This document shows, one piece after another, positions 39,711-53,022 of a stretch of 64,000 nucleotides of DNA; position 1 is the first letter of the stretch, and every line of letters starts with the position of its first letter. The stretch covers positions 1,632,001 to 1,696,000 of the forward strand of contig CBDFMQ010000002.1 in the NCBI GenBank assembly GCA_965249725.1, given 5' to 3'. Source of the DNA: Longimicrobiales bacterium (GTDB lineage Bacteria; Gemmatimonadota; Gemmatimonadetes; Longimicrobiales; Gaopeijiaceae). The position numbers were made by a program, and so were the translations under genes. Under the pieces are notes generated by a model. That model worked only from the letters and a program-made list of their open reading frames with translations. It did no database searches and was not told where the DNA came from.

Positions 39711-39784
39711 TGGACCGTGCGGGACTCGAACCCGCAGCCTCGCGCTAGCTAGACACATGCTCTTCCAATTTGAACTATCAGCCC
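39711..39784 (-). tRNA. tRNA-Ala(AGC)-like gene, atypical
   Basis: Cloverleaf GGGCTGA TA GTTC AAATTGGAA GAGC A TGTGT CTAGCTA GCGCG AGGCT GCGGG TTCGAGT CCCGC ACGGTCC A; G3:U70 and A73 present; U37 and A7:A66 abnormal; no encoded CCA. Confidence 0.7.
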
Positions 39785-39887
39785 AAAGTGATCCTACGGG
39801 GATAACGCATCTCGAAGCTTCTGTCTGATACTAAACGTCCAATAAAATCTTCTAGACATAAAGACACGAAGAAGAAATACTCAAGAC

Positions 39888-40307
39888 ATGAATAAGTTTC
39901 TCTCCTTCGACAGTCTGCACGGCCGGACGGGTTTCTTCCTTCTAGCTTGTATAGTTCTAACAATCTCCTGTACCGCGATACGGTCTGTAATGGTTGAACG
40001 AACGGCTCCGCCCGAAGAGTTATTTACTTGCTATATGCGAGAGCTTGCACGAATGGAATATGTCGTCGAGGATGGTAACCGCGATGCAGGCTTCATTCGG
40101 GCCTTCAGAGAAGAAACTGGATTCCTTCGCGGTGACTATGGTTACGAGGCGACGATCACGATCATCCCATCCGACTTTGGCTCTGAAGTGAATGTGACGA
40201 TTCGTGACGTCCTAATTGAACAAGGAGGGGGACGTACCTCAGACGATTTGGGTATGAGTCAAGAAGGCCTCGACGATCTAGAATTGTTACGAGTAGCTTG
40301 TGTTTGA
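39888..40307 (+). CDS. Hypothetical lipoprotein (lower GC)
   Basis: Hydrophobic N-terminus with TIS-C; located in an AT-richer segment. Confidence 0.65.
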   Translation: MNKFLSFDSLHGRTGFFLLACIVLTISCTAIRSVMVERTAPPEELFTCYMRELARMEYVVEDGNRDAGFIRAFREETGFLRGDYGYEATITIIPSDFGSEVNVTIRDVLIEQGGGRTSDDLGMSQEGLDDLELLRVACV

Positions 40308-40364
40308 TAACGAGCAAGGGGTATACCCTTGGGGTAGGTGCATTCGAGGTAGATCGCGTACAGC

Positions 40365-40993
40365 CAGGTCTTGAGCGGCCTGGACCCGGGCAGGCGGCGG
40401 CTGTTCGTGATCGATGGCTCGAAAGCGCTCAGGAAGGCGATCGAGAAGGTGTTCGGCCAACGTCACCCCATCCAGCGCTGCCGCAACCACAAGCTCCGCA
40501 ACGTGCTGGGTCATCTGCCGAAGGATCAGCATCCTCAGGTGAAGGCGGCGTTCCGGGCAGCGATGAAGCTGGACGCGAAGCAGGGCGAGCAGAAGCTCGA
40601 GCAGCTCGCCCGATGGCTCGAGCGCGACCACCCCTCGGCCTCGGCCAGCCTGCGCGAAGGCCTCAGCGAGATGTTCACTATCAACCGGCTCGGCCTCCCA
40701 CCGCGGCTGAGGAGGTGCCTGGGCTCGACCAACCTGATCGACAGCACCCACTCGGGCGTAAGACGGAAGACCCGCAGGGCGACTAACTGGAAGAACGGAG
40801 CGATGGCCTTGCGCTGGGCTGCGGCCTCGTTCGTGGAGACCGAGAAGAGCTACCGGAGGATCATCGGCTACGACCAGCTCTGGATGCTCAGGGCCCACCT
40901 CGACGACCATGAACCGGTTGCCGAAATGAGAAAGGCAGGCTAACAAGGAGACTCCCCGGAGCCACCACCTTCAACTGTCAGCGGGACACCATC
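40365..40993 (+). mobile_element. IS256-family remnant: transposase 3' half plus right end
   Basis: FVIDGSKAL, IQRCRNHKLRNV and STNLIDS motifs; end sequence TTCAACTGTCAGCGGGACACCATC. Confidence 0.85.
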
Positions 40994-41068
40994 AGCTCGC
41001 GGTCCACGTCAGCGCTGTGCCCTCGGACTGTCCAACAAGGTAGGACCACCCCACTCGGACTCCTCAAC

Positions 41069-42217
41069 ATGAGACCACTCTACGTTGCCTGCGTCGCGGC
41101 GATCGTCTTGGCCGCTTGTGACGATGAGACTGCCCCGACTTCCATTTTGGAACCCGGCGATGCCGCCGTGAAAATTGGATTCCTGGTTTCGGGCGACCGG
41201 ATCACCTATCTGAACGGAGCCAGGATTGCGGTGGACGAAGTCAACGAGCGCGGAGGGTTGCTGGGTCGCTCCATCGAACTGGTCATCCAGATGGACCTGC
41301 AGGAGGAGGCGGCTGCGGTCCAGGCCGCAGAGACCATGATTCTCGCCGATGAGGTCGTTGCCCTCATTGGCCCCAACCGCTCGTCGCACGCCATCGAGGT
41401 AGGGGCCGTGGCCCAGAGTCATGGTGTGCCGATGGTTACAACGGCGGCCACCAACCCAGCCGTGACCGAAGCCGGCGACCTTGTCTTCATGGCCGCGTTC
41501 ACCGACCAGTTTCAAGGGCGAGTCATGGCGCAATTCGCCTCGGAGACCCTCGGGGTGACCGCAGCCGCTGTCCTGACGCAGCAGGGAGAAGTCTATAGCG
41601 AGGGGATCGGCGAATTCTTCATCGACCATTTCGGTGGCCTTGGAGGGACGATCGTCGCCGACGAGTCCTACGAGGGCGGTGCGACGGAGTTTACCCCGCA
41701 ATTGGCGCGCATCGCGTCGGCTACTCCTGGGGCCATGTTTCTCCCGGGTCTGCCGGCAGAAGTGGCGCTCGTGACCACGCAGGCGCGCGCCCTACCGCTG
41801 CAAGACGGTGCCGGGGAACCGACGCTCTTTCTCGGGGCGGATGCGTGGGACAATCCGACGCTGCTGGACAATGAAGAAGCCGCCATCGATGGCAGCTTCT
41901 TCAGCAGCCACTTTTCGCCGGACACGAGCGAGCCAAGCGCACGCGCATTCGTCGACACGTATCAGGGTCTGCACGGGACTGTCCCCACCGGCGGCGATGC
42001 GGTGAGCTACGATGCGGTGCGGTTGCTCTTGGAAGCCGCAGAGCGAGCGGGCAGCCTCGACGCAGACGCCGTGCGCCAGGAACTGCTAGCTACCGAAGGA
42101 TACGCCGGGGCAACCCACATCGCCCACTACAACGAACAGCGCCATCCGACAAAAAGCGCGGTCATCATGACCATCGAGAACGGCGTGAAGAGGTTCCTTC
42201 AGCACGTGGATCCGTAA
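41069..42217 (+). CDS. Branched-chain amino acid ABC-type substrate-binding lipoprotein (orphan)
   Basis: Lipobox LAA-C; AVDEVNERGGLLGRSIEL, LIGPNRS, FTDQFQG and SYDAV. Confidence 0.9.
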   Translation: MRPLYVACVAAIVLAACDDETAPTSILEPGDAAVKIGFLVSGDRITYLNGARIAVDEVNERGGLLGRSIELVIQMDLQEEAAAVQAAETMILADEVVALIGPNRSSHAIEVGAVAQSHGVPMVTTAATNPAVTEAGDLVFMAAFTDQFQGRVMAQFASETLGVTAAAVLTQQGEVYSEGIGEFFIDHFGGLGGTIVADESYEGGATEFTPQLARIASATPGAMFLPGLPAEVALVTTQARALPLQDGAGEPTLFLGADAWDNPTLLDNEEAAIDGSFFSSHFSPDTSEPSARAFVDTYQGLHGTVPTGGDAVSYDAVRLLLEAAERAGSLDADAVRQELLATEGYAGATHIAHYNEQRHPTKSAVIMTIENGVKRFLQHVDP

Positions 42218-51597: not shown

Positions 51598-51603
51598 AGA
51601 ATA

Positions 51604-52725
51604 GTGCGGTTTCGGCCCGAGAATCTAACGGAGGCACGAGAGGCACGGGATCTAACCATGACGGCTCTCGCTGAGCTGGTGAACCGCAAGCCAGCCAGCA
51701 TCTCTCACTACGAAAAAGGGCGCATCGAACCCCCTGCAGAAGTAGTCCATGCGCTATCGAAAGCACTGGATGTGCAGGTGGGATTTTTTTTCAAGCCCCC
51801 GCGCTGTATGCCCGAGGGTCCCACGTTCCACCGTTCGCTCTCAGCAGCAACCAAGCGAGCGCGACTTAGAGCTGAGCGCCGTATCGACTGGACGTTCGAC
51901 ATTCTGCGGTTTCTTGAAGGTTACGTTGACATCCCTTCGGCAAATCTGCCGCCTCTGACATTCGATCTCCTGGGAGAGCTGACCGATGACCAAATCGAGA
52001 TTGCGGCGCACGGCCTACGACGGTATTGGGGCCTAGGGGATGGCCCCATCCCCAATCTTGTGTGGCTTGTCGAGCAGCAGGGAGTTGTCGTGGTCCGGGA
52101 CTCTGTTGGGAACAACAAACTCGACGCCCACTCTCGATGGTGTGGCGAACGGCCGATTATTGTCCTGAATTCCGACAAGCGCTCATCAACTCGCTCGCGG
52201 TTCGACTGCGCGCATGAGCTTGGTCATGTTCTGTTCCATCGGAATGTCTCGGTGGCCCAGGCTCAACGTTCAGAAAACCGTAAGAGGATCGAGGCCCCCG
52301 CCGATCGCTTTGGTGGTGCATTCATGATGCCTGCCGAGACGTTTGCAGAGGAAGTCGGAAGGCCGACCCTAGAAGGGTTGCTGGCTCTCAAATCCAGGTG
52401 GCGGATGTCTGTCGCCGCGATGCTAGTGCGCTGCGCACAACTTGGTCTTGTTGGTGAGCGCAGGGCCGAACTAATGTGGCGCTCGCTGTCTCGGCGTGGA
52501 TGGAGGAGGCGCGAGCCGTTTGACGACTCCTTCCTGCCCGAGCAGCCGCGCATGTTTAATAGAGCCTTTGACGTTTTGGTTCAGAACAACTTGGCGAGCC
52601 GAGAGGCTGTCATCGACAGCACCCACCTCGCTGACGCAGACATCGAGAACCTTTCGGGCTTGGCTCGTGGGTTCCTTCGCAAGGAACCGACCCAGGTTTA
52701 CGAGATAGGCCCACGAGCCTCCTAA
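51604..52725 (+). CDS. XRE-family HTH + ImmA/IrrE (M78) metallopeptidase
   Basis: N-terminal HTH (LTMTALAELV...ISHYEKG); RSRFDCAHELGH HExxH motif. Confidence 0.93.
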   Translation: MRFRPENLTEAREARDLTMTALAELVNRKPASISHYEKGRIEPPAEVVHALSKALDVQVGFFFKPPRCMPEGPTFHRSLSAATKRARLRAERRIDWTFDILRFLEGYVDIPSANLPPLTFDLLGELTDDQIEIAAHGLRRYWGLGDGPIPNLVWLVEQQGVVVVRDSVGNNKLDAHSRWCGERPIIVLNSDKRSSTRSRFDCAHELGHVLFHRNVSVAQAQRSENRKRIEAPADRFGGAFMMPAETFAEEVGRPTLEGLLALKSRWRMSVAAMLVRCAQLGLVGERRAELMWRSLSRRGWRRREPFDDSFLPEQPRMFNRAFDVLVQNNLASREAVIDSTHLADADIENLSGLARGFLRKEPTQVYEIGPRAS

Positions 52726-52755
52726 TCCACTGGCCCCAAAAGGGGAACGAGTATT

Positions 52756-52905
52756 GAACGCTCCGGCGATGGCGGCAGGGCTTGAAGATCGGCCCTGGAC
52801 GATGCTCGACGTGGTGGAGCGGATGGACCCGGCGAGATCAGGAAGCCGCCGCCAACGCTGACGACAGTGGACCGGCCCAAGACCTACACGACAACCAAAA
52901 ACTGA
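52756..52905 (+). pseudogene. C-terminal remnant of an IS1-related DDE transposase
   Basis: Translates as APAMAAGLEDRPWTMLDVVERMD, matching the TPAMAAGL.D..W tail of this family. Confidence 0.55.
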
Positions 52906-52949
52906 CGGCTGTCATACAACTGTAGGGGTGAAGGGGGAGGAGAAAACGT

Positions 52950-53022
52950 GGCCCCGTAGCTCAATGGATAGAGCAACCGATTAGCGACCGGAAGGCTGCG
53001 GGTTCAAGTCCCGCCGGGGTTC
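52950..53022 (+). tRNA. tRNA-like gene with AGC anticodon, inside IS1595
   Basis: GGCCCCG TA GCTC AATGGATA GAGC A ACCGA TTAGCGA CCGGA AGGCT GCGGG TTCAAGT CCCGC CGGGGTT C; perfect D and T arms; two anticodon-stem mismatches; no G3:U70. Confidence 0.7.

Follow-up and report, generated by a model that had tools for sequence, protein, structure and literature searches.

The window analysed here is a 64,000-nt stretch of contig CBDFMQ010000002.1 (positions 1,632,001 to 1,696,000) of a Longimicrobiales bacterium, assembly GCA_965249725.1. It contains two tRNA genes, copy A (39711..39784, minus strand) and copy B (52950..53022, plus strand), which may be drifted members of a tRNA family carried as cargo by IS1595 transposons. 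Both were called by ARAGORN as tRNA-Ala(AGC), and Rfam RF00005 scored copy A at 34.9 bits and copy B at 55.2 bits, each above its gathering score (29), identifying both as tRNA and confirming the two AGC cloverleafs recognised in a first-pass annotation. Of the 54 tRNAs that ARAGORN called in the 4.16-Mb genome, these two alone had AGC, and the sets for Ala (UGC, GGC, CGC), Gly and Arg were ordinary. CCA is not encoded in either copy, as in most host tRNAs. Both genes were spanned by Logan contigs from four runs (X1-X4) of one sample, which may itself be the source of the assembly: copy A was identical in X1-X3 and copy B in X1-X4, and the 1265-nt X4 piece over copy A had one difference somewhere within it. 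Since these contigs agree with both copies, the AGC anticodon is not an assembly error. Both tRNAs were absent from the two same-genus genomes (G035 and G093), and a scan within 260 nt of copies A and B found no promoter match.

Copy B lies in an IS1595-family element of 4056 bp (49760..53815, plus strand) with terminal inverted repeats matching at 23 of 24 positions and identical 8-bp target duplications on the left (49752..49759) and right (53816..53823). The transposase is a pseudogene with shifted frames (49843..50784, plus strand; PF12762, PF12760, NF033547). The features of an IS1595 transporter insertion sequence (IS), namely a transposase (here a pseudogene), inverted repeats, an 8-bp duplication and passenger genes, were all found around copy B. 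The cargo includes a homologue of the RosmerTA toxin RmrT (50917..51597, plus strand; PADLOC E 6.5e-14) and the antitoxin RmrA with helix-turn-helix and IrrE/ImmA peptidase parts (51604..52725, plus strand; PADLOC E 2e-117; Pfam); this anti-phage toxin-antitoxin pair (50917-52725) thus rides as IS1595 cargo. Just upstream of copy B, translation revealed a broken C-terminal remnant without a profile match (52750..52905, plus strand), presumably akin to an IS1-type transposase tail. On the other side are a 57-aa coiled-coil open reading frame (ORF) convergent with copy B (53035..53208, minus strand), a 54-aa small ORF (53205..53369, minus strand) and a cargo ORF for a 74-aa zinc-ribbon membrane protein (53560..53784, plus strand). 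The same type of small ORF faces the tRNA in G460, G470 and G560, a comparison that is partly circular because the profile was built from three ORFs of this type.

Around copy A, a 22-aa IS1595 transposase fragment (40313..40378, minus strand; local IS1595 hidden Markov model E 2e-5 to 1.5e-4) was found 528 nt upstream, and a 139-aa ORF with no family match (39888..40307, plus strand) lies between them. Downstream is a possible degenerate IS1595 end (39651..39667, minus strand), its likeness to the repeats being judged by eye; no partner repeat or target duplication for it was found near copy A, nor were complete element boundaries. The transposase fragment is cut by a piece of a multi-copy insertion sequence, probably of the IS256 type (40367..40995, minus strand), which G035 and G093 have many times over at 97-98% identity. 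The host elements of A and B are both broken in this genome.

As previously annotated, the variable loop and T arm are common to the two copies, which differ in the acceptor and anticodon stems, but the shared motif proved generic: at least 118 GTDB matches were obtained, mainly Asp GUC (58), Thr UGU (22) and Trp CCA (16), with AGC in none of the 118 listed, and the motif was dropped as a family marker. Copy A combines A20 and a core akin to the IS-borne family described below with an alanine-type acceptor (G1-C72, G2-C71, G3·U70, A73; mismatch at 7:66), an anticodon stem with three G·U pairs, and U37, the lone pyrimidine at this position among the 54 tRNA calls. The bacterial tRNA-Ala set G3·U70, G2-C71 and A73 is complete, while G4-C69 and G20 are absent. 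The acceptor of a phage tRNA-Ala(UGC) (L390) is the same at 13 of 14 stem positions, differing solely at position 7, and the 3' end of copy A matched 14 viral contigs, six of them at tRNA-Ala(UGC). Since its acceptor carries the alanine set, copy A is predicted to accept alanine, the amino acid that its anticodon also calls for; it is probably a tRNA-Ala that reads GCU and GCC with unedited A34 and does no harm. A locus considered as its relative (L122; G3·U70, CGC, U37) was dropped owing to its AT-rich housekeeping context.

Copy B has an arginine-type body (A20) with a weakened acceptor (G1·U72, G2·U71, C73) and two mismatches in the anticodon stem. Its C3-G70, G2·U71 and C73 depart from the bacterial tRNA-Ala determinants, and both window copies have G35-C36 in place of the tRNA-Arg determinant C35 with U36 or G36. 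With no Ala determinant, and with C35 and a clean acceptor lost, copy B is probably uncharged. Its flanks (52933..53035, plus strand) are predicted to pair and lengthen the acceptor helix, in a minimum free energy fold. The host has a TadA-like gene, but both window loops read AGC instead of the ACG of the Arg2-like loop that is the TadA substrate, and inosine at A34 is unlikely. Escherichia coli TadA edited three of 15 A34 anticodons tested, and AGC that stayed unedited decoded GCU and GCC to about the same extent (PMC11066159).

The first-pass annotation had taken AGC to be the selected feature of a family. Across 401 genomes of the phylum, the exact AGC pattern matched this genome only (150 of 158 matches listed), and allowing one mismatch brought ACC look-alikes in G460 and G470. 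Anticodon-blind patterns gave nine matches in seven of the 53 genomes of genus g53 and 37 matches in 32 of the 314 family genomes; from the latter, 23 CCU genes and one Trp gene were set aside as housekeeping, the former including G008:C821, excluded at a contig end amid housekeeping genes. Further members came from a covariance model and from a transposase-first survey. An identical second G470 copy was counted once, and weak ARAGORN calls (L354, L431, L448) and housekeeping Ile, Lys and Arg genes (L381, L387, L417, L418) were left out. The resulting set comprised 18 distinct Arg-type members including A and B: seven with ACC, three GCC, one UCC, two GCU, two AGC and three with a six-base loop NUCGCA. 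Anticodons were non-arginine in all 18, and none of the 16 relatives outside the window had AGC, which gives no support to the idea that this anticodon is under selection.

The nearest relatives of both copies have ACC (A to G470, 74%; B to G460, 86%). The end branches of A and B are 0.56 and 0.21, versus 0 and 0.026 for these relatives. Copies A and B share two derived bases versus about 0.9 expected by chance, the chance of a shared change at position 35 alone being about 1.3%. A local cause for the double AGC is therefore possible, but the anticodon is no family trait.

The three six-base-loop tRNAs (L289:7701-7773, L362:6829-6901, L424:6615-6688) have different stems and the same loop, and are candidates for causing frameshifts. 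A good promoter was seen for the one in L362, which is also flanked by an 18-bp inverted repeat. One GCC member (L288:7322-7395, G575) lies between housekeeping genes that are about 500 bp apart; the gap contains no transposase, and this member is possibly a non-autonomous unit. Outside the family, none of the 73 genomes of sister families of the order matched a pattern requiring VC at 35-36, and a family search around G644 returned that genome alone. The family patterns had no match in viral contigs and one in metagenome contigs, which was Lys(UUU). A wider Arg-type search was dominated by housekeeping Arg(ACG), with no new member among the matches listed; the AGGYU variable loop is common in housekeeping Arg(ACG) of the host family. 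Rejected matches were the 3' half of tRNA-Arg(UCU) (C3:836086, covariance model, own genome), an Arg(ACG) within a tRNA array (top plasmid match) and the one AGC match in viral contigs, whose Ala body is ordinary and which belongs to a cluster of phage tRNAs. Phage tRNA clusters provided an ordinary-looking Ala(AGC) (L129:1987-2062) and a Gly(ACC) call by ARAGORN (L395:1528-1610). A further body-anticodon mismatch was seen in a GTDB metagenome-assembled genome (MAG), where an A20 tRNA with an AAG anticodon and a short variable arm (L014:2980-3054) lies beside tRNA-Ala(CGC) with no IS1595 nearby.

The members are linked to IS1595. A transposase or its fragment was found within 2.3 kb of 10 of the 18, a terminal-repeat motif or small ORF near five more, and five Arg-type members (B, G470, G587, G501 and G082) lie between matched repeats with 8-bp duplications. 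In genus g53, six of 13 sequence-found members were transposase-linked versus about 0.4% predicted, an estimate that allots 12 kb to each of the 77 transposase hits in about 220 Mb. The expectation that relatives would lie in mobile elements or near toxin and HEPN genes was thus borne out for IS1595, while no consistent toxin or HEPN neighbour emerged: the 62 proteins adjoining relatives shared no toxin, HEPN or synthetase family. This bears on the earlier proposal of AGC-specific substitute tRNAs, decoys or antitoxins directed at the neighbouring toxin and HEPN nuclease. In its favour, RosmerTA is in the same element as copy B, an ApeA/YopA-like gene is 0.9 kb away, the chance of AGC arising at the same site in both copies is low, and an Xre/MbcA antitoxin or a SIR2 gene is found close to single relatives. 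However, RmrT already has RmrA as its cognate antitoxin, copy A sits 11 kb from RmrT, the ApeA/YopA-like gene lies outside the element and AGC is missing from all 16 relatives. We consider this proposal very improbable.

The reverse survey started from 77 transposase hits in g53 and 33 in g6; nine near-identical g53 copies and five loci known already were omitted, and 94 new loci (60 from g53, 28 from g6 and six from the host genus) were examined. Odd tRNAs were present at five of the 94: two Arg bodies with six-base loops, a Leu-type UGG, a Cys-type CGC, one Ser-type UAA and three Cys-type UGC. In G446, a Leu-type body with GCC shares its element with an Arg-type member. Body and anticodon were mismatched in all eight survey tRNAs and in this Leu-type GCC, nine of nine. 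The long-arm Leu-type bodies beside IS1595 transposases, L289:8991-9082 (Gly GCC) and L425:5230-5319 (Pro UGG), are the clearest candidates for missense tRNAs. The Ser-type UAA and the three Cys-type UGC tRNAs occupy one complete low-GC IS1595 element of 2798 bp with an 8-bp duplication (L370:4137-6934, G559:C140), whose transposase is split at an A8 run and where each UGC tRNA comes right after an ORF in antisense.

The tRNA shape appears to be under selection. In 13 members, 95.4% of cells were paired, 10 of 22 pairs had changed on both sides, and the covariation score was reached by none of 500 shuffles. Positions 15 and 48 are complementary in all 18 members (A-U in 12, G-C in five, U-A in one), and A20 is invariant although the search patterns did not require it, whereas positions 16, 17, 20a, 34 and 73 and the pair 1-72 vary. 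The annotated family of IS-carried tRNA-like genes under selection thus holds for their shape and not for AGC. The alternative that these are decaying, functionless copies of captured tRNA-Arg genes and that the double AGC is coincidental agrees with the long end branches, stem mismatches and broken host elements of the window copies and with the modest excess of shared changes. It may well apply to copy B, but it would leave unexplained the compensatory changes across the family, including U15-A48, the three independent six-base loops all reading UCGCA, and the acceptor of copy A, which differs from that of G470 at nine of 14 stem positions and still forms six of seven pairs. For the family as a whole we regard decay as quite improbable.

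The reading that we tentatively favour, at somewhat short of an even chance, is that A and B are drifted members of an IS1595-borne tRNA cargo family in which bodies and anticodons are mismatched and which would act as low-level miscoding tRNAs. Host enzymes would transcribe and trim these tRNAs and add CCA. The Arg-type body would derive from tRNA-Arg, where a single change turns ACG into ACC, an origin that would account for A34. Host synthetases would charge the tRNAs by their bodies, surely in the case of the Leu and Ser bodies and the two GCU members with A20-C35-U36, and weakly in the case of NCC members. Arg, Leu, Ser or Cys would then be inserted at Gly, Ser, Ala, Pro or Leu codons: Leu-type members would place Leu at Gly or Pro codons, the Ser-type member Ser at UUA and the GCU members Arg at Ser codons, while six-base-loop members would slip the reading frame. 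Leu- and Ser-type members would miscode because their synthetases do not read the anticodon (PMC11415595, PMC9976931); the case is weaker for NCC, AGC and CGC-type members. A native tRNA-Ser3(GCU) causes -1 shifts at GCA (PMC12202706). In E. coli, A34 tRNAs mature and function, overexpressed Gly(ACC) impairs growth, and tRNA-ProX and Ser-identity allo-tRNAs mistranslate. Judging by its other cargo, the element would benefit through an effect on stress or defence.

The main bacterial ArgRS determinants are A20, kept in all 18 members, and C35 (PMC9976931), which favours this reading. Several observations weigh against miscoding. The full set A20-C35-U36 occurs in the two GCU relatives only, and 11 NCC relatives have C35 without U36 or G36. 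C36 is present in 16 of 18 members (13 with a seven-base loop and the three with a six-base loop, if CGC is taken as their anticodon); in yeast, it blocks arginylation of tR4 in vivo and causes a 123-fold loss with tR3 in vitro (PMC4742068), and most members may be poorly charged owing to it. The discriminator varies (A, G, U, C). Relatedness among members inflates the covariation, which is partly due to descent. The tree, built on 75 columns, has poor resolution and neither supports nor rejects monophyly (p-AU 0.6). Three of the 18 members have no IS1595 marker, a promoter match within 260 nt was found in just two of 17 members scanned (chance 3%), and the Leu, Ser and Cys body labels were assigned by eye from the variable arm, D loop and discriminator. 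In the linked transposases, no cognate codon fell at a column where the body's amino acid is strongly conserved (top share 0.57), and hence no beneficiary within the element is apparent. The two promoters, upstream of G446a and G501, are sigma-70-like and count in favour of miscoding.

The charging data come from enzymes other than the host's ArgRS. The yeast enzyme accepts CG or CU slid to 34-35 (PMC4742068), and in an insect mitochondrial system C35G abolishes charging (PMC4615739). In five Arg-type members without A37, including both window copies, the body's triplet stands at 35-37 (CCG, CCU, GCG, GCU), as does GCA in four Cys-type bodies. Mukai et al. proposed a 35-37 register for HisRS (PMC5389517), and ArgRS might likewise read a triplet slid to this position.

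The rival that the tRNAs are uncharged mimics is a strong one, although we rate it below miscoding. Here the L-shape and A20 would bind ArgRS, or RNase P and other processing enzymes, while C36 would preclude charging, and the RNAs would sequester synthetases, mark transcripts for processing or pair in antisense with element cargo mRNA. Besides the prevalence of C36, blocking in yeast, and the freedom of the discriminator and the 1-72 pair to vary, it fits the hairpin just upstream of eight of 13 members folded, the pairing flanks of B, G460 and G446a, the tail-to-tail arrangement of the tRNA with a small ORF or transposase in many members and the antisense placement of the three UGC tRNAs of G559; most allo-tRNA(UAU) tested were likewise inactive and linked to transposons or toxin-antitoxin genes. 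On the other hand, Leu- and Ser-type bodies are recognised without the anticodon and would be charged, the GCU members hold the full Arg set, the anticodons concentrate on Gly, Ala and Ser instead of drifting freely, and the orientation of the tRNA relative to the transposase is mixed (six opposite, four the same).

A further possibility is that these are extra cognate tRNAs, with a dimeric GlyRS glycylating the NCC members and copy A being alanylated, that aid the reading of U-ending codons in element genes. The host has a dimeric GlyRS and no beta subunit, C35, C36, C2-G71 and C50-G64 are Gly elements of Thermus thermophilus, and the Ala identity of copy A is concordant. This explanation appears improbable: G3-C70 is absent and C1-G72 occurs in five members, the GCU members, copy B with its AGC and the six-base loops are not accommodated, and the host Gly and Ala sets are already complete. 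Neither codon enrichment nor recoding of the element's own transposase was found; GGU made up six of 72 Gly codons in linked versus 75 of 881 in unlinked transposases, and its share in two ACC elements was 12-18% versus about 17% genome-wide.

Under the miscoding reading, the AGC pair is probably the local disarmed state of a mobile tRNA family. A wider version, possible but doubtful, is that IS1595 spreads deliberately miscoding tRNAs as mobile, protein-free defence or addiction modules and that the window holds two of them being disarmed, one into tRNA-Ala(AGC). The repertoire would then comprise frameshifters with six-base loops, foreign anticodons on Leu, Ser and Cys bodies and, on Arg bodies, ACC as well as further anticodons for Gly, Ser and Ala.

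The rest of the window holds other mobile and defence genes. The ApeA/YopA-like (HEPN-type) gene (53943..55367, minus strand) had Atlas feature matches of 0.96-0.98 and none in Pfam, NCBIfam or PADLOC. Together with an MbeA-like relaxase and mob genes, a Dsr1-like sirtuin and a tyrosine integrase, it forms what seems to be an integrative mobilisable defence island outside the copy B element (53943-62884); a relative of the relaxase occurs with the same small ORF type on G035:C6. A second IS1595 element (45835-47662) has an intact 295-aa transposase, 26-nt inverted arms, one passenger and no tRNA, and its transposase is 75% identical to that of the ACC-carrying G470 element. Leucine-rich-repeat proteins are encoded at 43234-45162 and 47500-49584, one fused to a nuclease/helicase-like tail and one to an M12/M66-like peptidase region. 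Elsewhere in the genome, a large tRNA cluster includes three tandem tRNA-Pro(CGG), two with broken T arms (G000:C3:1903345-1903791).

The AGC pair is by itself of modest interest. The few known cases of natural miscoding tRNAs are tRNA-ProX and allo-tRNAs. Here a bounded transposon of 2.5-7 kb carries such candidate tRNAs without a partner synthetase, and each can therefore be tested directly in E. coli. If the miscoding reading is true, mobile elements would alter the fidelity of the host genetic code and disturb protein synthesis. The seven natural ACC genes bear on why A34 tRNAs are excluded, and the ARAGORN labels Ala(AGC) and Gly(ACC) in MAGs can mask tRNAs of other identity.

IS1595 transporter elements are said, after Siguier et al. 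2009, to have a DDE transposase with a zinc ribbon, repeats of about 24 bp, an 8-bp duplication and passengers. The elements described here are alike in their passenger genes and differ in having tRNAs among them; in the literature searched, with most subscription papers and supplements outside its scope, there was no description of an IS1595- or transposon-borne tRNA family. The family resembles tRNA-Arg(ACG/ICG) and the rare non-ACG ANN tRNAs in A34 and the Arg-type D loop, and differs from housekeeping Arg(ACG) in its anticodons, ACC and AGC. With a 70-bit filter applied, non-ACG ANN genes made up 132 of some 240,000 (bioRxiv 10.64898/2026.05.15.725136), and Gly(ACC) has been listed as universally missing (PMC8007984). 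AGC has a bacterial precedent and is less exceptional than first annotated: tRNA-ProA, with ProT and ProN one of the tRNA-ProX of Streptomyces, has the anticodon of A and B (PMC10404621). The tRNA-ProX likewise join a body and an anticodon of different amino acids, have A34 and are misnamed by their anticodons (PMC10404621, PMC11415595). They have a Pro body with C1:G72, A33, A15:A48 and G21 and a co-encoded ProRSx (PMC10404621, PMC11415595), unlike A and B, which have G1, U33, A15-U48 and A21 and belong to an Arg-type family carried by IS1595; no synthetase family was found among the 32 window ORFs or the 62 neighbours of relatives, and thus no counterpart of ProRSx. With allo-tRNAs the family shares diverse anticodons on a fixed identity, links to toxin-antitoxin genes and transposons, and a predicted mixture of active and inactive members; an identity triplet at 35-37 was proposed there too (PMC5389517). 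Allo-tRNAs have an 8/4 or 9/3 fold, a long variable arm and Ser or Ala identity (PMC5389517), whereas A and B have a 7/5 fold and a 5-nt variable loop, and only the Ser-type UAA tRNA of G559 resembles them. If its members do miscode, the IS1595-borne family would work like tRNA-ProX and allo-tRNAs while differing from both in structure and in having no synthetase partner.

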